A stretch of DNA of 39,296 nucleotides from a virus (lineage: Duplodnaviria; Heunggongvirae; Uroviricota; Caudoviricetes), in the IMG/VR virus record IMGVR_UViG_2541047784_000014; one strand, given 5' to 3'. The notes beneath the pieces are model-generated. The model searched no databases. It had not been told where the DNA came from and saw only the letters and a list, made by a program, of their open reading frames with translations. Below, piece after piece: positions 3,316-34,100 of the stretch; the stretch's first letter is position 1; every line of letters begins with the position of its first letter. The position numbers and the translations under genes were made by a program.

Positions 3316-6072
3316 TTAGCTACTTTCAAGCATTGCAAGACGTGATTCTATTTTTTCGATTCTTCTACGCAAATAAGCTGACTCAAGCCATAAACACTGG
3401 TCAGTACGGATACCCCACCTATTTCCAGCCTTGCAAACCAGAGTTCGCTCTTCTGTTTCGTATTCTTCTTCCATCTCAATTTCGACGCCATCCACAACTT
3501 TAGTGATCATCCTTACCGCCATCACTGGCGCGTATTTATCATCCCATTCATCGTAACAGAGAAGGCCAAATCTGGTTCCATCAATCCCATGCGCGAGGAA
3601 AGTGTCTCTCACTTGTTGTGCTATAACACCAAAATGCCAGCGGGCACCATCTCCCTTTTCCCTGACGGCATCAAGCCAGCGAAAAGCTACAATCCTGATA
3701 TCTCCCCATGCATCCAGAATTGCATCACCTTCATAACCACGAGACATATACAAGCTGAGCTCACTTGTACTAATCGGTTCACTTTTTTCTCTACCATCTG
3801 ATGTGTTTATCGAACCGTTCGCAGAATAAACCTGTGCCCATCTAAATGATGGTGCACCAAGAGATTTGCTGTTATCAATAATTGGTGAAAAATTACCTTT
3901 AATGGCAATATTTCCAGAGTCGCCGAATATATTAATAACTGCAGAGTCATCACCATGGTTTTTTACGCTTAAGTTTCTTGATGAAATATTTATATCTTTG
4001 TTATATCCACTAACATTAATCCATCTTTTACCATCAATGTGATACCCGTAAATATTTCCGTCTGATTGTTCGTCAGGTGACTCTCTAAGAACAATAGCAT
4101 CTGCTCCAGACGACCATTGTATTTTTGTATCTGTAGGCCTCCAGTTCTTTATAATGAACGAACCATCAGTAAACTCCGTTTTTATTTGTCTATTGTCTAC
4201 AAATGCGTCTCTTGGTTTAAACTCACTTGTGTTAACGCTGCTCTGAAGATCAGAAGCAAAAAATCTAAGATTTCCTGTATAACCCTGAGTCTCGGTCTGG
4301 TTATACGCAATCATAATTCCATTTTCAAACTCAGATGATGTTATTTTAACATCACGGCAATCACCAAAAATGCAATTTCCTTTATCAAATGTTGTTTGAG
4401 CTTTGAATTTATCAAACCTTAAATTACGAACAGGGAAACCATCAACCTCTAATGCAAAGGATGCAGGAAGGCCAAAGTATTCTGATGGCTTACCTGATGT
4501 ATGATCAAGAGTAGTGGCTACTGTATTCTCAAAAACAGTCCCGCTAAAATTATTACCAATTGACGGAAACCTGATTACACTTATTGTACCTTGTATTTCA
4601 GGAGAAATACCAGATAGTGTGATGTTAGCTCCATCAAATGATGCATCTGAATACGTATATACTGATTCACTGCCAGCAATTTTAAACTGTTTAACTGAAG
4701 TTATTCTCATCGACTTTTTATGTTTAAATGTCACTGAGCTTTCAGTATTACTTACAAGATCAATCTGAGGGCTATTCCTTATCGCGATCCCTGACTGGAC
4801 ATAAACGTTATTAAAGTGCGTTTTTTCAGGATTTCCCTTCATTGAAAGGCTCCCGTCATTTTCTGTCAGTAGTAGTCCTTTTACCCTCCAATAGCCGACA
4901 ATCTGTACGTTATCAATAACTGAATCACAGCTATCGTATACATGCAACCCTATATCCCAGTCATCACCCAATGAATAAGAATCAGGGTTATTGTATCCTT
5001 CAATACCATTTTTACTTACCATTATTCTCAGGTTGCGTAACTGTGATGCCCTGTTGATACTAACAGCTACGCTCATGGCTTTTGGTGTAGCAGGAGTAAC
5101 ACCTACAGAATCTTCATTTGTAAACTCAGTGAACTTACAAGATATCCCTTCAACAATTTTAATTGGTCTTTCATTAGAGATGTTAAAAAAATATTTGTTT
5201 TTTTCTCCATCACCAGTAAATACAAGATGGGTTCCTTTACTCCAACTTTTTAATAATCTTTCAGGCGCTGGTCTATATGTATCCCAATAATCAATGCCAT
5301 CACCAATTAAAGACACTCCAGGAGGCACATCTATGTTCTTAGAAATCATCCATTTACCTGCAGGTATTCTAACGACACTTGCACCAGAATTTATCGCATT
5401 AATTAACCATTCAGACGCATCAACTTCAAAATTTAATGCAGCATATCTTTGCTCAAACGGAACAAAATCAAGAGCGTTAACGTTATCCCGCATCTTATCC
5501 TGGAACGTTCGGTATACTGCTCCAGAACCATACTGAATAAACCAACCAAAACCACCAACAACTCCGGCGATTGCAGCATCAACATAATTACGCATTGAGC
5601 GATTATTTACAGCATCCTGCTCAAGTGATGGATCTGCAAGGTTAGAAATTCTGTTTTGCTTTGCATCGTAATATTTTGCAAGCAAAGATGGTTTCATCAA
5701 TGCACGTCTGAACCACCCAAAACATTGCTGGATCAGCATCGTCAGGTAGTCAAAAGCATCTTCATGCACTTCGGGGAAAAATTTTCCCTGATTGCGAAGG
5801 TCTGTCTCCTGCACTACATCAAGCACACGATCTATCGTAATTCGCCATCCAGCAGCAAGCGGCGACGGAAGAACAACAGAACCGCCACTATAAGTGCCCG
5901 CCCCAGTTACCGTATAACCGGTATCCAGAACCAATTCTGTTACGTTCCCGTTCAGGTCAGACACCTGAACAACCAGGTCGGATTTTTTGAAAATACGGAA
6001 GGTATACGGAAATGATGTCGTAGCGCCGTTACCGGTGTATTCGTTGTGGTCAACTTCGGTTGAGACCGTCAT
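3316..6072 (-). CDS. Tailspike / tail fibre with T7 gp17-like N-terminal tail-attachment domain and C-terminal S74-type intramolecular chaperone domain
   Basis: GGAG 9 nt before the ATG; N-terminus (YTGNGATTSFPYTFRIF..DLVV) resembles the T7 tail-fibre N-terminal domain; AT-rich central receptor-binding region; C-terminus carries SDGREK and HFGVIAQQV motifs typical of auto-cleaving chaperone domains. Confidence 0.85.
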   Translation of the reverse strand: MTVSTEVDHNEYTGNGATTSFPYTFRIFKKSDLVVQVSDLNGNVTELVLDTGYTVTGAGTYSGGSVVLPSPLAAGWRITIDRVLDVVQETDLRNQGKFFPEVHEDAFDYLTMLIQQCFGWFRRALMKPSLLAKYYDAKQNRISNLADPSLEQDAVNNRSMRNYVDAAIAGVVGGFGWFIQYGSGAVYRTFQDKMRDNVNALDFVPFEQRYAALNFEVDASEWLINAINSGASVVRIPAGKWMISKNIDVPPGVSLIGDGIDYWDTYRPAPERLLKSWSKGTHLVFTGDGEKNKYFFNISNERPIKIVEGISCKFTEFTNEDSVGVTPATPKAMSVAVSINRASQLRNLRIMVSKNGIEGYNNPDSYSLGDDWDIGLHVYDSCDSVIDNVQIVGYWRVKGLLLTENDGSLSMKGNPEKTHFNNVYVQSGIAIRNSPQIDLVSNTESSVTFKHKKSMRITSVKQFKIAGSESVYTYSDASFDGANITLSGISPEIQGTISVIRFPSIGNNFSGTVFENTVATTLDHTSGKPSEYFGLPASFALEVDGFPVRNLRFDKFKAQTTFDKGNCIFGDCRDVKITSSEFENGIMIAYNQTETQGYTGNLRFFASDLQSSVNTSEFKPRDAFVDNRQIKTEFTDGSFIIKNWRPTDTKIQWSSGADAIVLRESPDEQSDGNIYGYHIDGKRWINVSGYNKDINISSRNLSVKNHGDDSAVINIFGDSGNIAIKGNFSPIIDNSKSLGAPSFRWAQVYSANGSINTSDGREKSEPISTSELSLYMSRGYEGDAILDAWGDIRIVAFRWLDAVREKGDGARWHFGVIAQQVRDTFLAHGIDGTRFGLLCYDEWDDKYAPVMAVRMITKVVDGVEIEMEEEYETEERTLVCKAGNRWGIRTDQCLWLESAYLRRRIEKIESRLAMLESS

Positions 6073-6175: not shown

Positions 6176-6192
6176 ATTACCTTTCAGGTAAT
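6176..6192. promoter_or_regulatory. Dyad operator-like site ATTACCTTTCAGGTAAT
   Basis: Perfect 6-bp inverted arms around a 5-bp spacer; member of a motif family found at about twelve intergenic sites; sits between the tailspike start and the LexA-box promoter. Confidence 0.5.
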
Positions 6193-6230
6193 TTGCAAAA
6201 CGTGCTGGATAGCAAACAAATTATTTGCTA

Positions 6231-6246
6231 CTGTATAAATATACAG
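6231..6246. promoter_or_regulatory. LexA (SOS) box CTGTATAAATATACAG
   Basis: CTGT-N8-ACAG with an AT-rich centre, near-identical to the E. coli consensus TACTGTATATATATACAGTA; 22 nt upstream of the ATG at 6268; an internal TATAAAT could be the -10 element. Confidence 0.7.
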
Positions 6247-6267
6247 TTATTGCATGGAGAAGATAAG

Positions 6268-6525
6268 ATGCAGCAGTATCACTATCCACTGGAAGACGGA
6301 TTTACCGAAAGGATTCACACGCCGGGAGGCGTCAGGTCACTGGTGGAGGGATCGCACTTGATGAAATTACTCCGGGATCTCGATAAGGATGGATTTAATG
6401 TCGATGGCCCACTTGCCGAACTGACTGCACTGATTAACTACGTCACCAGCTCACAGATGTCTATGCAGGATCTGCAAACACATCTCGACTATTGTGCCGA
6501 ACAATTACGAAAGCAAACCAGATAA
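6268..6525 (+). CDS. Small antirepressor-like protein, paralog of the C-terminal domain of the adjacent Bro-N antirepressor
   Basis: ATG with GGAG 10 nt upstream; residues TPGGVRSLVEGSHLMKLLRDL...DLQTHLDYCAEQ parallel SPSGVLGLTENSLLMNLLNQL...DIQTHAEYINDK at the end of the 6839-7531 product; directly downstream of the LexA box. Confidence 0.6.
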   Translation: MQQYHYPLEDGFTERIHTPGGVRSLVEGSHLMKLLRDLDKDGFNVDGPLAELTALINYVTSSQMSMQDLQTHLDYCAEQLRKQTR

Positions 6526-6555
6526 GGTTTGCAATTACCAAGTGGAGTGCTTATA

Positions 6556-6572
6556 TTTACCTTTGCGGTAAA
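6556..6572. promoter_or_regulatory. Dyad operator-like site TTTACCTTTGCGGTAAA
   Basis: Same motif family; nested in a longer inverted repeat GGAGTGC...GCACTCC (6544-6587). Confidence 0.45.
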
Positions 6573-6664
6573 TTTACATCGCACTCCTCTTGTGCCATAG
6601 TAATCGGGCACTGGCAAAATCCAGTGCCGGGATTGGTCTCCCGGATTACTACAGAGGCACATAT

Positions 6665-6684
6665 GCCGCATAAGCGGTTTTTTT
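6665..6684 (+). terminator. Putative Rho-independent terminator
   Basis: Short hairpin CCGC-ataa-GCGG followed by seven T; preceded by a stable hairpin GGCACTGG-caaaat-CCAGTGCC (6607-6628). Confidence 0.45.
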
Positions 6685-7531: not shown

Positions 7532-7596
7532 CGGGCGGCGGCACATGGATGTGCCTTTAAAATAATCATTGGCGATGTGATGTAGATTCGCGTAAT

Positions 7597-7613
7597 ATTA
7601 CCTTAAAGGTAAA
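7597..7613. promoter_or_regulatory. Dyad operator-like site ATTACCTTAAAGGTAAA
   Basis: Same motif family; 26 nt upstream of the ATG at 7639, close to its strong ribosome-binding site. Confidence 0.45.
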
Positions 7614-7638
7614 CCATGTGTTTACATGAGGAGGAGAT

Positions 7639-7848
7639 ATGGGATTTTGGTTCGCTCGTACAAAAACGAGGGATAATGCACCCAGCCCTCAGGCAAAAAA
7701 TGCAGAAGTTCCGGCGTCAGCGCAGGTTAACAAGCGTGGTGGAGTATATATCTCATCACAGCAAATTTCTGAGCTTCCTGAGGTTAAGGAGATGCGTCGT
7801 CTCGCTGCTGCAATTGTTAAACAGGATCTTGCCACTGTAAGGAAGTAG
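7639..7848 (+). CDS. Hypothetical small protein (69 aa), first gene of an accessory two-gene operon
   Basis: ATG preceded by GAGGAGGAG; stop TAG overlaps the GTG of the next gene (TAGTG). Confidence 0.6.
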   Translation: MGFWFARTKTRDNAPSPQAKNAEVPASAQVNKRGGVYISSQQISELPEVKEMRRLAAAIVKQDLATVRK

Positions 7849-8714
7849 TGTTGCTAGCTCTTCTAATTATCCCAATCCTGGTTAGCGGTTATATTATGAT
7901 AACCGCTAACCAGTATCATTATTTCCGTTTATACCGACACGAAGGCCAGCTTCTTTATATGAAAGTAGCGGCACTAGGTACATATTGCCTTGTTGCATCA
8001 GTAATAATTGCAGCCGCTATAAAATATAAATGGCCTGATTTTCACCTAGTTCACGATATGGTGGAAACTTTTAATGTAACATCAAAACCAGAAACAGATA
8101 GAATTTACATGTGGCTGCTTCTTCTCTCAGCCACATCCATTTGCTTCTCTTTGTGTTATGTGTCTGTTGTGTGGGTGAAAGATTTTCTTCTTGGTTGTTT
8201 TTATAAACGTGATATTTACGAGCAAAAAACAGAGGCAATGAAGGCCAGAGTACTGCGAAAAACTTACTCGCAAGGTTCTTTAGACTTACTATTGCTTGAT
8301 GCTATTGAATCGGATCCTAAACGACCAATGCTGATTACTTTATCATCAAACAAAGTGTATGTTGGAATAATAAATGGTTCTGGTGAACCAACGGAAAATC
8401 AGGGTCCGCATCAGCACATATCTTTTGTTCCTTTAATGTCAGGATACAGGAACAAAGAAAACTTATCTGTCACATTCACTAATGCTTATCCAGGAGAAAT
8501 ACAGGTCAAGCGGACTGCAGCAATAAGAGGAATTAGCAGAAAGAAAGTGCCAGGACTTGAGATCATGGTGTCTATTGACGAAATAAGTTATATATCATGG
8601 TTTGATTTTGAAGTATATAAAGCAACAAATAACAAAGTAGAATCCAGGGGGCACGTTATTCGTGTTACCAAAAATGGAAGAAATATATATCAAAGAAATA
8701 GCAAAAAAGAATAG
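7848..8714 (+). CDS. Hypothetical inner-membrane protein (about 3 N-terminal TM segments plus a roughly 170-aa soluble domain); candidate superinfection-exclusion or abortive-infection factor
   Basis: Long AT-rich ORF with hydrophobic N-terminus, translationally coupled to the 69-aa gene and followed by a strong terminator. Start uncertain (GTG 7848, TTG 7851 or ATG 7896). Function is inference only. Confidence 0.65.
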   Translation: MLLALLIIPILVSGYIMITANQYHYFRLYRHEGQLLYMKVAALGTYCLVASVIIAAAIKYKWPDFHLVHDMVETFNVTSKPETDRIYMWLLLLSATSICFSLCYVSVVWVKDFLLGCFYKRDIYEQKTEAMKARVLRKTYSQGSLDLLLLDAIESDPKRPMLITLSSNKVYVGIINGSGEPTENQGPHQHISFVPLMSGYRNKENLSVTFTNAYPGEIQVKRTAAIRGISRKKVPGLEIMVSIDEISYISWFDFEVYKATNNKVESRGHVIRVTKNGRNIYQRNSKKE

Positions 8715-8735
8715 CCCGCGCTGCGGGCTTTTTTG
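8713..8735 (+). terminator. Rho-independent terminator
   Basis: Hairpin AGCCCGC-gct-GCGGGCT followed by a T-run, immediately after the stop at 8712-8714. Confidence 0.8.
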
Positions 8736-8772
8736 TGTCTGCGGATTCCCGCCCGGGCGGCGGTGGCATTCG

Positions 8773-8798
8773 TTAAAAACAAGGCCGCGAAAGCGGCC
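8773..8798 (-). terminator. Rho-independent terminator for the minus-strand gene 8813-9262
   Basis: Hairpin GGCCGC-gaaa-GCGGCC (8783-8798) followed on the minus strand by UUGUUUUU. Confidence 0.7.
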
Positions 8799-8799
8799 T

Positions 8800-8812: not shown

Positions 8813-9262
8813 CTACTTGCGAAATCTTTCTTTACCCTTCCAGCCAGTAGATGTTAGTTCAGGATGAATGGTTCCCAATATAAAGCCAACCATAGCGGAG
8901 CGAGGATCTTCTATTTTATCCGTTAATTCTTCGGCATAACTCACAGGCAACCAAGCAACAAGATCACCAATCCTCAGCTTTGGTCCTTTGCTGTAAGATG
9001 AATCGGCAATAACAAAAAATCCACCATCAGCTGAGCACACCTTCAGCATTGCCCTTTGTCTTCCAGAATCTAGCAAAACTGGCTGTTCCCCACTTGGACC
9101 AGGTATGATGATGGCTGGCATTGGTTTATTGGCTGAAAGGCTTGTGTCAAGATACTTACACGCATACTCAAAAGCTGAAAAGTTATCCTTAAAGATAAGA
9201 GGTTGAATTTTATTGCTAACCTCCTTACCACCGATTAATCTGTTGATCATCTTCTTGAACAT
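8813..9262 (-). CDS. Hypothetical protein (about 149 aa)
   Basis: ORF with in-frame ATG codons at 9262 and 9250 (the track start is a GTG at 9271); moderately AT-rich; followed by palindrome and terminator. Confidence 0.55.
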   Translation of the reverse strand: MFKKMINRLIGGKEVSNKIQPLIFKDNFSAFEYACKYLDTSLSANKPMPAIIIPGPSGEQPVLLDSGRQRAMLKVCSADGGFFVIADSSYSKGPKLRIGDLVAWLPVSYAEELTDKIEDPRSAMVGFILGTIHPELTSTGWKGKERFRK

Positions 9263-9274
9263 AAAGGTCACCTA

Positions 9275-9715
9275 ATGATTAAGCCGATGCACGCTATTAC
9301 AGCTACCGTTTTGTTTATCCTACCAATTTTTTCGTTTGCAAACGACATATGTTTTAAGAATTTAATAAATGAGGATATGTGTGCACATGCAAACAAAATT
9401 GCATCAGAAGCAGGAAAGTCACTTCCCATAAAATTGAATGATAATATGTCTATTGTTTCAATAAATGCAATACTAAACAAACTTTTAGTTGTAGCGCATC
9501 TTAATTACAACAACAGCTATTTATCAAAAGTTTATAACGGTGATGTAACCTTAGAAAATAAATTAAAGAGTGTAATGCGAAATTATTCAAAATCGAGCAT
9601 TTGCTCCAACAGGCAAATGAAAGCATTTATTCACCTTGGCGGAGAGATTGAATATAGGTATGTATTTAGTGATGGCAATATATTTGATACATACGCCATC
9701 ACTAATTGTGAATAG
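9275..9715 (+). CDS. Secreted (signal-peptide) Cys-containing protein, AT-rich accessory gene
   Basis: Predicted signal peptide (probable cleavage after FSFA); 4 Cys in the mature part; very AT-rich; on the strand opposite to the flanking late genes, its stop codon abutting the convergent stop of the 1129-aa gene (TAG/CTA at 9713-9718). Confidence 0.6.
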   Translation: MIKPMHAITATVLFILPIFSFANDICFKNLINEDMCAHANKIASEAGKSLPIKLNDNMSIVSINAILNKLLVVAHLNYNNSYLSKVYNGDVTLENKLKSVMRNYSKSSICSNRQMKAFIHLGGEIEYRYVFSDGNIFDTYAITNCE

Positions 9716-12700
9716 CTATTTCATCTGCTCTTCAACTTTATTTAGTAACGGTGATATCGCCCACAGGTTCTGAAAAGGTAGCATTTTACGGACCGCGTGG
9801 GTTTGCTGGCTGTCAAATTCTCCGTTAAGTACACCATTCGCAACCGTCGCGGCATCACCGCCAAGATCAAAGGTAGGACCAAGTAAAGCACCAATAGCAT
9901 TACGACTCTGAAACCTTGATACCGGAGGCGCACCAAACATCGCGCCAAGACCAAACCTACCGCCGCTTATGTTCTCAACGGTATTCAGCGGCTCAGAGAG
10001 CCAGCCAAGCATTCCGCCCCGGTCGATCCCCTCTTTCACAAGGTTATTCCAGCTGTAGTCGATATCGCGACCGCTTAACTTCTGTTTCATCATATAGACC
10101 ATTGAGCCAAGCGCAATCGTGCCAAGCGCACCAAGATAGAATGCAGCATCGCCCTGCTGGATACCAGATACTAGCACCCTGTTATGCTGTGCGAAGATAA
10201 ACGTTTTGAACTGCGTGATCATCTTCCAGCCTTCTTTACTAAAAAACAGCGGTGTATCACCTACGCCAGGCGTTACAATCACTGAGTCTACATCTTTCAG
10301 CACTGCAGACTGGAAAATCTCTCTAGCGAAACGGTCATCCCACAGATGACTATGCCCGGTTAACAGCCCGTCCATATCCTCTCCGTGCTTCCCGAATTGC
10401 TCCCCGATTCGGCGCAGAACATCTTCATTGATGCCGACCTGTGCCATCTTCCGCATTTCACTTTTGGAGAGCGTGCCACCAGCAGAAACTTGGCGAGCCG
10501 CGTCAAGTATCCTCGACTGCACTATCATCCCGGACCATGATTTAAGTGCGCTGTTCCACTGATTCATCAGCGTCCAGTTACCGAATTTCTGCGTCATCCA
10601 GTTCAGACCTCGCTCAGCGGCGCTTCTCCGGCTATAGGGGTCAGTAAGATCCGCTATAGCCTTTGTACGCGTAGACAGGACATAATCAAGCCCAACGGCC
10701 ATTTCTCGCAAATCCCTGGTTGCAATTTTCACTGAGTCCATATTTTTAAGCATGCTTACCATTGGTCCGAGAGATTTTCTCAGGCCATGCTGCATCATCG
10801 GTCGCATCAGATCAGTTGCAGCGGAGACAGTCATTCCACCAAGCAAACGGAGGAAGTTAATATTCCTAGCAACTCGCCCGGCACGAACAAAGAAACTGCG
10901 TGGATCTTGAGGTGCACCGTAAGTACCAAGCAGTCGATCACGCATAGCCGTAATATCCCTAATATCAGCCTCCCGTTGCTTCTCAAGAACTGCACGTCGT
11001 TTAGGTGTTTTAGCCTCTTTTATTAGCCGGGTATATTCCTCACTAACCTGACGGATTTGCTCCCCCATATCTTTACGGCCAAACTGCGCAGTCAGCTCAA
11101 TTTCTGGTGCCACCTGCCGGAGATAACTTTCCATGATGTAGTTAACATCTGATTCAAGAAAATCTTCTATACGCTCATCAGGAATAAGCAGCGTTCTGCT
11201 TTTAGTGAAACCAGCCCGACCAACGAGTCTCTCTGGGATAATATCGGCTGGTACAAGCCCGGAAGGTGCGCCTATTATTTTATTCACGATCTCGTCAGCA
11301 GCGTCCTCTGCTTCCTCTCGGGATAGAGGCTCCATCTGCTTCAGTGCTCGTTCGCGGCTTGCATTCAGCCTTGTGGTTGAATTTGCCCGTTTTTGCAGTC
11401 GGCGAAGCTCAGAACGATATTTCCGTGGATTATCCAGCAACTCCATATGGCGCTGATAGACAGGAAGCTCACTCTTTGCCTGCGCTATATCATCAAGGCG
11501 TGTTTTAAGGTCAGAGCTTTCTTTCATCATTCTTGCCTGAAGTTTTTCTGATGAAGTCTCGGCCAACTCTTTTTCTATTCTTGTAAGACGCGCCTGTGTG
11601 TCAGTCTCCTGAGATATAAGCTTATTTCGTTTATCCAGTTCTTCCATGAGTAGAATTTTTTTACCAGACCATTTCTCCGCTTCAGCGATTTCACTAGCGA
11701 GAGCATCAGCGCGCGGTGCCGATTCCTCTGCAGTTTTTAGCAATGAATTTATCCTTTCAATTCGCTGACCTGCTTTGTCAGCACCTTTGGCACTAATCCC
11801 TTGTATCCAGTTGGCAATTCGCCCTCTGAATTCAGTGCGGTCGGAAAGTATCTTATCGAACTTATAAATGCGGGGAAGATAACTTTTCGCCGTCACGACA
11901 TCGATATCCTCAGGAAGGATCCCCAGTTCCTGCATACGGGCTTTTGTGGTCTCGAAAATGGGGCGGATTCTGGCGGCTGCTTGTGAAACCTCAGGAATAT
12001 CACTCTGATCACCACGGCGCATAGCCATGCCAACAGCTTCATTGAACTCAATAAAGTTCATCCTCTTCACGCCGCGGGCGCTAACAGATTTGCTGTACTG
12101 CTGGTAAGCATCACGAGTGGCTTCCATCTGCTTATAAAGCATGGCGTCGTATTGCTTAATCTTAGTCTCGACTGCCGTAAACGTAGCCAACCCCTCATCA
12201 TTTTTGGCGAAGAAATAGTTATTTTCGGCAAGCTGCTGGTTAATCTGACGGGAGACAAGAGATGGTGATTGAGCCAAGCGGCCAGCAGGAGTGACACTCA
12301 ACGTTTTGTTAGCAAGTCCAAGTCCAGCGAGCTGTTCCTGATCGAGTGTGGTATTGAAAACCTGAGCTGCACCAATGCTTTGAGGAGAATCCATACCTCG
12401 CAAATGATTACCTACTGAGTTAACCACTGCCTCGCGCGCGCTAGGTCCAGCAAGTAGCTGTGCACCAGCACCAAGGATCCCACCAACGAGAGCATCAACA
12501 ACAACGTTCGATACGCTCTCCATCGGTGAGCGAGCTTCCTGAGTGGCCTGTAATGCGGCTTCTGATACTCCCCCACCAGCAGCATTCGCCAGGGCAAAAC
12601 GCCCTGCCGTCTCAGCAATACTTCCTCCACGCGCTACCGCCCCTACAGGGATAAACATTGCAGCCACATTAACCGGGTCTATCATTCCCATTGCTAAGCT

Positions 12701-25157: not shown

Positions 25158-25174
25158 ATTACCTTTCAGGTAAC
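25158..25174. promoter_or_regulatory. Dyad operator-like site ATTACCTTTCAGGTAAC
   Basis: Near-identical to the 6176-6192 site; preceded by a TTGACA hexamer (25137-25142) and a shared AACCACATA element (25107-25115). Confidence 0.45.
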
Positions 25175-27972: not shown

Positions 27973-27989
27973 GTTACCGTTGTGGTAAT
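27973..27989. promoter_or_regulatory. Dyad operator-like site GTTACCGTTGTGGTAAT upstream of the terminase genes
   Basis: Same TTACC-N5-GGTAA family; 17 bp upstream of the terminase small-subunit start; flanked by GGTAATAGTTACC-type repeats (27966-27995). Confidence 0.45.
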
Positions 27990-30892: not shown

Positions 30893-30909
30893 TTTACCCC
30901 TGAGGTAAT
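30893..30909. promoter_or_regulatory. Dyad operator-like site TTTACCCCTGAGGTAAT
   Basis: Same motif family; immediately upstream of the DUF1064 start codon; followed by AACCACATA (30914-30922). Confidence 0.45.
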
Positions 30910-30954: not shown

Positions 30955-30971
30955 GTTACCCAGAAGGTAAC
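30955..30971. promoter_or_regulatory. Dyad operator-like site GTTACCCAGAAGGTAAC
   Basis: Perfect 6-bp arms; second site of the module between the P-like gene and the DUF1064 gene. Confidence 0.45.
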
Positions 30972-33226: not shown

Positions 33227-33292
33227 AGCTATTGCCTGATATTTATTTCAGATAATAAATATTCACCCATAAGGTAACAAAAATCAAGGATA

Positions 33293-33309: not shown

Positions 33310-33326
33310 TTTACCTGTTGGGTAAT
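33310..33326. promoter_or_regulatory. Dyad operator-like site TTTACCTGTTGGGTAAT
   Basis: Near-perfect dyad in the divergent Cro/repressor intergenic region. Confidence 0.5.
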
Positions 33327-33380: not shown

Positions 33381-33965
33381 ATGAAAAGTATCCAGGACGT
33401 CCGCAGGCAAAATCTCAACGACTTGATCGACCGTGAATTCAATGGTGTTCAGACGCGGATGGCAGAAAAACTTGGAACTCAGGCAAATCTGGTAAACCGC
33501 TGGGCTCTTGGCAAGAAGGTTATCGGCGACCAGGTTGCGCGAAAAATTGAAGCTGCCGCCAATAAACCCCGTAACTGGCTTGATATCGATCGCTCGCTTT
33601 CTCAGGAAGGTTTTCAGCCTGTCGGCCCAAGCGACATTGGTCAGCTGGCGGCTCACAACCTGGAACGCTGGATGAGCGAAAGCCGCGACCTTTCAACGCA
33701 GGGAAAACTTCACCGCGCATCCGGCGTCGCCCAGGTGACAATCAGTCGCCTGTTAAACAATGAGGTCAGCGTTTCCATTTCCACCCTGGAGAATGTTGCA
33801 TCCGCATTCGGGCGTCACGGATATGAACTACTGATTCACCCGCACGACCCTGCGACTATCAACTATGACCGCTCGCGCTACGCATTGTTACCCGAAACCG
33901 AGAAAGCAAAGATCGAAAGTTACATTGAATTTGTCATCAACCAGAACGAAAAAAGCAAACAATAA
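33381..33965 (+). CDS. Repressor-like protein with two predicted HTH regions and no recognisable S24 peptidase domain
   Basis: HTH-like segments near residues 25-45 and 115-135; no Ala-Gly/Ser-Lys autocleavage signature seen by eye; cI-like position; followed by a strong terminator. Confidence 0.7.
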   Translation: MKSIQDVRRQNLNDLIDREFNGVQTRMAEKLGTQANLVNRWALGKKVIGDQVARKIEAAANKPRNWLDIDRSLSQEGFQPVGPSDIGQLAAHNLERWMSESRDLSTQGKLHRASGVAQVTISRLLNNEVSVSISTLENVASAFGRHGYELLIHPHDPATINYDRSRYALLPETEKAKIESYIEFVINQNEKSKQ

Positions 33966-34021: not shown

Positions 34022-34038
34022 ATTACCTTACGGGTAAT
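34022..34038. promoter_or_regulatory. Dyad operator-like site ATTACCTTACGGGTAAT
   Basis: Perfect arms; upstream of a TTGACA hexamer (34057-34062) at the head of the + strand early operon (pL-like position). Confidence 0.5.
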
Positions 34039-34083: not shown

Positions 34084-34100
34084 ATTACCTCAACGGTAAC
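34084..34100. promoter_or_regulatory. Dyad operator-like site ATTACCTCAACGGTAAC
   Basis: Second site of the pL-like region, about 20 bp downstream of TTGACA. Confidence 0.45.

Follow-up and report, generated by a model that had tools for sequence, protein, structure and literature searches.

An IMG/VR virus record of 39,296 nucleotides (IMGVR_UViG_2541047784_000014, Caudoviricetes), which we call the window when we mean this whole stretch of DNA, carries on its plus strand, between positions 7569 and 8735, a genuine and well-defined operon of two genes that encode a protein of 69 amino acids (aa) and a membrane protein of 287 or 288 aa. Within the databases searched, the two genes belong to a new, widespread, and unnamed two-gene family, which is a candidate for a role in conflict or defence; this role is unproven and the mechanism is one that we infer. 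The window is an Escherichia coli prophage of the phiV10/epsilon15-like type, with 100% identity to NZ_OZ040490.1, where it adjoins yfgI. A preliminary description, made from the sequence alone, had singled out the operon as an exclusion or defence candidate and as possibly a previously undescribed system. The family is indeed unnamed, but the pair is not a one-off, since it is a member of a large and widespread family.

A widespread and unnamed pair of genes

A full profile search with the large protein returned 2,338 representatives (at 50% identity) with E <= 1e-3 and 901 with E <= 1e-10. Among the matches listed, nearly all are 240 to 340 aa long and are aligned over almost their entire length, and the named members of the family carry only the label "hypothetical". 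A word-indexed search gave 28 clusters, all from Enterobacterales wherever an organism was named. Neither protein of the window matches Pfam, NCBIfam, PADLOC, or any PDB sequence, in line with the earlier failure to place them in a known defence family, and both belong to PHROGs of unknown function (phrog_5739 for the small protein and phrog_3630 for the large one). The same holds for 85 diverse relatives of the large protein, which have no match in Pfam or PADLOC apart from one PADLOC hit at chance level (E 0.0094), and whose profiles found nothing among the PDB sequences. The components modelled in PADLOC-DB 2.0.0 match neither the window proteins nor their phage homologues, nor, beyond chance level, these 85 relatives. 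We found no description of the family in the literature, although recent screens of E. coli prophages may have touched it.

The two genes travel together. A homologous small gene lies directly upstream of the large one in all 19 loci inspected, which range from Gamma- and Betaproteobacteria to Acidobacteria, with a gap of -1 to 24 nt. The hosts of the pair include Escherichia, Providencia, Citrobacter, Pectobacterium, Yersinia, Arsenophonus, Symbiopectobacterium, and Cronobacter, as well as phages of Klebsiella and Salmonella, and further Shewanella, Vibrio, Pseudomonas, Novosphingobium, Bowmanella, Brachymonas, and Acidobacteria. In the most distant of these loci the relationship of the small genes rests on the alignment pattern, without a significant score. 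Since each gene has conserved homologues and their pairing is kept across phyla, we consider both to be real genes. The core of the small protein is a beta-hairpin-like stretch, V-x-G-R-G-x-V-x-I/V, followed by a helix that ends in A-x-x-I-V. An AbrB/MazE-like protein was considered because of the pattern V-x-G-R-G-x-V-x-I-P-x-E and was rejected, as the hhalign probabilities were 1.6% for AbrB and 0.4% for MazE.

Hydropathy gives the large protein three transmembrane (TM) helices, at residues 1-20, 39-60, and 87-112, and then a soluble C-terminal part of 176 aa, which agrees with the approximately three N-terminal segments and the soluble domain of about 170 aa reported earlier. Following the positive-inside rule, the N terminus is predicted to face outwards and the 176 C-terminal residues to be cytoplasmic. 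The predicted order is thus three TM helices, linker helices, a cytoplasmic Hfq/Sm-like barrel (residues ~160-252), and a C-terminal helix. In the structural model, the barrel has the arrangement that defines the Sm fold, in which an N-terminal helix leads into a five-stranded, antiparallel sheet that is strongly bent, and an insertion of about 25 residues modelled with low confidence (219-232) precedes its final strands. As modelled, this C-terminal domain is of the Hfq/Sm fold class and lies outside the Hfq/Sm sequence families: the Pfam LSM and Hfq profiles match neither the window protein nor the 85 relatives, profiles detect no Sm1 or Sm2 motif, and the domain has conserved motifs of its own (K-V-Y-V-G, G-E-P-x-E, and P-L-M-S-G-Y-R). 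Among viral structures (BFVD), Foldseek found nothing similar at E <= 0.001. The domain, which the preliminary description could not assign to any family, still has none at the level of sequence families, whereas its fold can be assigned by structure prediction. It also differs from the Hfq, LSm, and Sm proteins, and from WYL sensor domains, in being fused to three conserved TM helices and in lacking a Pfam-level match.

Conservation extends over both parts of the protein. Across the 85 sequences, the invariant or near-invariant residues are K169, Y171, G173, P181, E183, P195, S198, G199, Y200, R201, Y214, and F252 in the C-terminal part, and L11, G14, G33, Q34, L36, Y37, and G44 in the membrane part. 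A closer alignment adds P9, which is invariant, and a stripe of near-invariant serines in TM3 (S94, S97, and S101). The presence of such residues in TM1, at the start of TM2, and in TM3 indicates that the membrane part is functional and more than an anchor.

The cassette recurs in very different mobile elements. Epsilon15-like prophages carry it in their moron region, which the tailspike gene bounds on one side and the core/ejection genes on the other; this applies to E. coli, Providencia, and Symbiopectobacterium, and in E. coli the cassette lies immediately downstream of the antirepressor gene ant. This is a position for cargo, and it bears out the preliminary description of an accessory operon that separates the antirepressor genes from those of the virion. 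In lambdoid prophages of Citrobacter, Pectobacterium, and a soil metagenome, and in the Cronobacter phage phiES15, it is the last pair of genes between int and the attachment site, and one copy was found at the right end of a lambda-like prophage. Three independent P2-like phages (Salmonella SEN4/SEN5, Klebsiella ST15-OXA48phi14.1, and a prophage of Enterobacter hormaechei) carry it between gpA and the portal gene, a site that is an experimentally defined anti-phage hotspot (Rousset et al., PMC9122126). In the Klebsiella phage (locus L031, 4856-6495), a gene for the defence protein bSEFIR (477 aa, PADLOC E 7e-103) lies downstream of the cassette, with one small gene (69 aa) in between, and in Enterobacter hormaechei the cassette adjoins a Peptidase_S8 and AAA pair. 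Elsewhere, it follows Mor and DUF4145 in a Mu-like prophage of Shewanella, is carried by a mobilisable element of Vibrio, lies two genes from an E2/E1/JAB protein in an integrative and conjugative element (ICE) of Pseudomonas, shares an island of Novosphingobium with a transposase, Mrr_cat, and ParE, and was found once on a resolvase-linked contig.

One assignment suggested by these surroundings, membership in the "2TM-1TM-TIR" system of Rousset, was rejected, because the TIR-like neighbour in Klebsiella is a single-gene bSEFIR and the cassette proteins match no PADLOC model. A cyclase-type gene, of the kind that accompanies signal-activated TM effectors (CBASS Cap15-like or Pycsar TM), adjoins the cassette in none of the inspected loci.

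Within E. coli, the distribution is patchy, with the cassette present in 28 of the 5,426 complete genomes. For phage HEMP4 and a further set of about 100 complete E. coli genomes, the match to the window is confined to the stretch with promoter and operator (7540-7613) or to that with the terminator (8704-8760). The former is 95-99% identical upstream of differing cargos, and in HEMP4 and in further prophages of E. coli the cargo found instead ends at the same terminator as in the window. Between the same flanks (loci L002 and L033-L036) we found a YafO-family toxin, which in one genome has an upstream partner of 108 aa, a DUF4760 protein, and an unrelated two-gene cargo (55 and ~147 aa). The exchanged segment has its breakpoints immediately behind the operator and at the stop codon itself, which indicates a slot reaching from promoter to terminator for interchangeable, mostly two-gene, toxin-antitoxin (TA)-like cargo, and every cargo of this slot inherits the repressor-controlled promoter.

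Operon architecture and predicted expression

The operon begins with a putative sigma-70 promoter on the plus strand (7569-7598), made of TTGGCG (7569-7574), a spacer of 18 nt, and TAATAT (7593-7598); it scored 8/12 in the promoter scan, under the cut-off of the scanner. Abutting the -10 hexamer is an operator, the perfect 15-nt palindrome TTACCTTAAAGGTAA (7598-7612). A strong Shine-Dalgarno sequence, GAGGAGGAG (7628-7636, plus strand), as read from the sequence, precedes the small gene (7639-7848, plus strand), which runs from ATG at 7639 to the TAG that ends at 7848. The large gene (7848-8714, plus strand) begins at GTG 7848, which overlaps the stop codon of the small gene (TAGTG), or, more likely, at TTG 7851, because the homologues all begin M-L/I/F-A-L-L with TTG. 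The end of the operon is marked by an intrinsic terminator (8713-8735, plus strand, and readable on the minus strand too), AGCCCGC-GCT-GCGGGCT (8713-8729; stem of 7 bp with 6 GC pairs) and then TTTTTGTG, whose T-run extends to 8735. The translational coupling, operator dyad, ribosome-binding site (RBS), and terminator that had been noted before are thus all present in the sequence. The AT-richness ascribed to the whole operon applies to the large gene (36.9% GC) but not to the small one, which at 47.6% is close to the window (48.0%); the structural region has 49.9%.

In the public annotation the operon is less complete. The record NZ_OZ040490.1 leaves the 69-aa gene unannotated, and in RefSeq (PGAP) the large gene is given a start at ATG 7896, which yields a product of 272 aa (9357-10175 in locus L001). 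This start removes the invariant N-terminal motif LLIIPILVSGY and cuts away the most conserved TM helix.

The two genes differ in their translation signals: a strong RBS and an ATG serve the small gene, whereas the large one relies on a weak TTG or GTG, and the weak TTG is conserved among homologues. Codons 10-22 of the large gene, in the part coding for TM1, can form an mRNA hairpin with a perfect stem of 15 bp and a loop of 6 nt (7878-7913, plus strand), with a folding z-score of -5.8 to -8.3. Enterobacterales homologues show compensatory changes at two of its pairs (CG/UA/UG/AU and CG/UA/UG), and in an alignment of 9 sequences, a small sample, 79% of the cells are paired, against 21-59% in slid controls. 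Distant homologues lack the hairpin. The combination of a weak start and a conserved hairpin in one gene with a strong RBS and ATG in the other suggests that the membrane protein is sparse and the small protein in excess, and it fits the tight limiting of a potentially toxic product. As for the hairpin itself, it may serve to control translation or stability, or be a site of processing by RNase III.

The operator of the cassette is one of many. The motif TTACC-N5-GGTAA, often with ATA in front, occurs in the window in 10 perfect and 4 one-mismatch copies, where 0.65 are expected by chance. The other perfect copies lie at 6177-6191, 6557-6571, 25159-25173, 27974-27988, 30894-30908, 30956-30970, 33311-33325, 34023-34037, and 34085-34099, and the one-mismatch copies at 2948, 27956, 32926, and 33263. 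Almost all of these operators directly border a -10 hexamer or overlap with one. Those at 33263 and 33311 lie between the repressor gene and a divergent cro-like gene, that at 34085 at a strong early promoter (TTGACA-16-TAATTA), that at 6557 in front of ant, and that at 6177 in front of a small gene related to the C terminus of Ant; the remaining sites (25159, 27974/27956, 30894, 30956, 32926, and 34023) are mostly between open reading frames. The repressor (194 aa, 33381-33965) is 99.5% identical to those of phiV10 and vB_EcoP_ZX5, and experiments on the ZX5 repressor have shown that it blocks the lytic cycle (PMC9782041). The sequence of these sites points to a scattered regulon comprising ant, the cargo slot, the early promoters, and the cI/cro region, to which the repressor would bind.

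In the cassette, the distance from operator to ATG is only 26 nt, which leaves no space for a promoter further downstream. Since its dyad is the phage-wide operator, the operon is probably repressed in the established lysogen and expressed early, along with the early genes, after infection or induction. Such wiring would point to action during lytic growth or establishment, comparable to that of T4 Imm and Sp, or to leaky expression in the lysogen. The homologue in Symbiopectobacterium has the same operator in the same place, and that of Providencia has a related dyad, TTAACC-N5-GGTTAA. The lambdoid copies of Citrobacter and Pectobacterium have a promoter of their own (TTGCCA-17-TAAGAT), and comparing the cassette promoter with the cI-cro region in the lambdoid relatives revealed no common operator, which together would fit expression from the prophage in these phages.

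Possible mechanism and competing explanations

The contexts described above, namely the anti-phage hotspot, the int-attachment site position, the Mu-like prophage, the ICE, and the island with Mrr and ParE, together with the YafO toxin in the same slot, favour a role in conflict or defence. This part of the earlier proposal therefore gains from comparative genomics. The phage-wide operator predicts that the operon is off in the lysogen, unlike a classic prophage-expressed exclusion gene. With somewhat less than even confidence, we propose that the cassette forms a self-contained conflict module of two genes, which temperate phages and other mobile elements carry as exchangeable cargo and in which a gated membrane effector acts by abortive infection or exclusion in a TA-like manner. 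The large protein would insert in the inner membrane with its three TM helices, N terminus out and C terminus in, and its cytoplasmic Hfq/Sm-like domain would drive the assembly of a ring, as Sm proteins generally form rings, and 18-21 TM helices would thereby be gathered into what could be a pore or a plug that blocks. The small protein, made in excess by virtue of its strong RBS and ATG, would bind the effector, kept sparse by coupling, the TTG/GTG start, and the conserved hairpin, and hold or tune it, as the invariable pairing of the genes suggests. One may speculate that a phage cue, possibly a nucleic acid on the Sm-like domain, or the loss of the small protein frees the effector, and that de-energisation of the membrane or blocked entry then makes the competing phage fail. 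In the phiV10-type wiring, the module would act during lytic growth or while lysogeny is being established. A bolder version, which we consider unlikely, has the membrane-tethered ring sense phage RNA or single-stranded DNA and gate a TM pore for which the small protein is the latch; it would define an undescribed class of abortive-infection effectors, and the cargos of phiV10-like slots, TA toxins included, would be deployed only in lytic growth or establishment.

Several known systems share parts of this architecture. Two-gene abortive-infection systems such as San Juan (sjdAB), lambda RexAB, and hydrolase-TM also have one multi-pass membrane protein without an enzymatic domain. San Juan confers protection against T4 and T7 that depends on the multiplicity of infection (PMC12366544). 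With its multi-TM component, San Juan would be the nearest validated analogue by architecture, as judged from its description only, and the cassette proteins match neither RexAB nor the other systems modelled in PADLOC. The large protein also recalls MscS, whose subunits oligomerise into a heptameric channel and which likewise has three TM helices, N-out/C-in, followed by a cytoplasmic Sm-like beta domain. A channel of this type was rejected, as there was no match to the MS_channel profile nor a structural match to the TM3 + beta + alpha-beta arrangement.

Some observations weigh against a gated effector in a conflict module. All claims of function come from guilt by association, and the pore, the ring, and the interaction between the two proteins are inferences only. 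Small folds of the Sm/SH3-like barrel type are very common, and a match to one therefore tells little about function. A minority of the relatives lie in ordinary chromosomal surroundings (for example in Bowmanella, Brachymonas, and one metagenomic contig). Repression in the lysogen, as predicted from the operator, is awkward both for a defence that protects the prophage and for a TA pair with an unstable antitoxin. Finally, we recognised no antitoxin DNA-binding fold in the small protein, AbrB and MazE having been aligned directly and ribbon-helix-helix and helix-turn-helix folds having been covered through the Pfam and PDB-sequence searches only.

Among the other explanations, a block of DNA entry, like that of P22 SieA or T4 Imm, is a fairly unlikely one. 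The protein would interfere with the ejection conduit of podophages and exclude secondary infection during lytic growth. It resembles SieA in residing in the inner membrane and in having three predicted TM helices, and it holds the equivalent position in a temperate podophage, between the ejection/core genes and those of the antirepressor and tailspike, just as P22 sieA lies between genes 16 and 9 (PMC10883804). SieA is a protein of 162-164 aa that acts alone, is expressed from the prophage, and has the cytoplasmic motif FxRYPxEAxxFNK (PMC10883804). The early-lytic wiring of the cassette suits an Imm-like role. T4 Imm and Sp exclude secondary infection during lytic growth. This wiring, with the operon predicted to be off in the stable lysogen and under repressor control, is unlike exclusion by a prophage-expressed gene such as P22 sieA. 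Compared with the layout of the SieA family (a single gene of 160-200 aa with 3-4 TM helices), the number of TM helices and the position agree, but the size, the Sm-like domain, and the partner gene, which is always present, do not. Judged by motif, size, and partner gene, the protein is not SieA: the motif is absent (the sole YP lies in FTNAYPGE), and the PHROG to which the protein was assigned has no known function. An entry block would leave the large cytoplasmic domain unexplained, and the occurrence of the cassette in P2-like, Mu-like, and lambdoid phages and in ICEs, which differ in their routes of entry, argues against a block that is specific to the podophage conduit.

It is distinctly unlikely that the cassette is a plain TA or addiction module, stabilising the mobile element and having no anti-phage role. 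As in type II TA systems such as YafN-YafO, a small gene comes first and a larger one second, with overlap or tight spacing and a weak downstream start, and the pair is bicistronic in the sense used for these systems; YafO modules occupy the same slot, and the cassette occurs on ICEs and on islands beside ParE. Unlike in YafN-YafO, however, the downstream product is a membrane protein rather than a ribonuclease, and the upstream one has no recognisable antitoxin fold. Furthermore, the operator belongs to the regulon of the phage repressor, whereas type II TA systems are typically autoregulated, and under such control the synthesis of the antitoxin would stop in every new lysogen. The recurrence of the cassette in experimentally defined anti-phage hotspots is not what addiction alone would lead one to expect. 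Quite improbable, too, is a helper of the lytic cycle, which could be a membrane-tethered, Hfq-like RNA factor for localising transcripts or sequestering them, or a protein that modulates the energetics of the membrane or the timing of lysis. Early-lytic expression along with ant and the early operons, which the operator wiring predicts, and the structural match to the RNA chaperone Hfq would suit it, but no Hfq/LSm sequence motif was detected, the slot is dispensable and interchangeable among near-identical prophages, the lysis cassette is elsewhere in the genome, and the cassette moves among unrelated types of phage and non-phage elements. This mobility also makes it highly improbable that the pair is a cellular housekeeping or stress module of the membrane that phages acquire occasionally: while the family is broadly distributed and the ordinary chromosomal neighbourhoods fit such an origin, most of the inspected contexts are prophages, ICEs, or islands, the base composition of the large gene is foreign, and the occurrence in complete E. 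coli genomes is patchy.

If the gated effector, or the module in any other form, proves protective, a widespread and entirely unannotated system, with ~2,300 representatives in Proteobacteria and beyond, would join the catalogue of defence systems, and a membrane-anchored Hfq/Sm-like domain would have its first role in the conflict between phage and host. The cassette is frequent among E. coli prophages: a single member of the small-protein cluster was found on no fewer than 1,000 contigs, and O25b:H4-ST131 strains are among the sources named for members of this cluster. The cassette may therefore affect the susceptibility of clinical strains to phages. The slot itself offers a natural system in which to ask why TA-like cargo should stay silent in a temperate phage until repression is lifted.

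Other features of the window

The region around the cassette includes further genes of interest. The leader of ant (6529-6678) has a promoter (TTGCAA-17-TATATT), the operator at 6557, and a terminator-like hairpin with a T-run (6665-6678). This hairpin lies more than 100 nt before the start of ant and may be an attenuator or part of a small-RNA unit, which recalls the control of the P22 antirepressor. The small gene at 6193-6525 (PGAP start at 6268), which has its own operator at 6177, codes for a free-standing version of the antirepressor's C-terminal domain; its product and the antirepressor both match phrog_450 and phrog_15539, and its homologues adjoin the tailspike gene in Providencia and in other E. 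coli prophages too.

The tailspike or tail-fibre gene (3316-6072, minus strand, 918 aa) has a conserved N-terminal part with 46% GC and an AT-rich distal part with 38.6% GC, a composition that fits the exchange of receptor-binding domains. In sibling prophages (locus L034), a protein of the endosialidase type replaces this tailspike. On the other side of the cassette, a second terminator (8782-8799) serves the minus strand, and two more AT-rich accessory genes follow, one at 8813-9271 (minus strand, phrog_9944, 41.8% GC) and one at 9275-9715 (plus strand, phrog_8772, 31.7% GC). The N-terminal segment of the 146-aa product of the latter resembles a signal peptide. While the other inspected siblings lack these two genes, an identical pair is present in one sibling prophage (L033), where the slot holds a different cargo.

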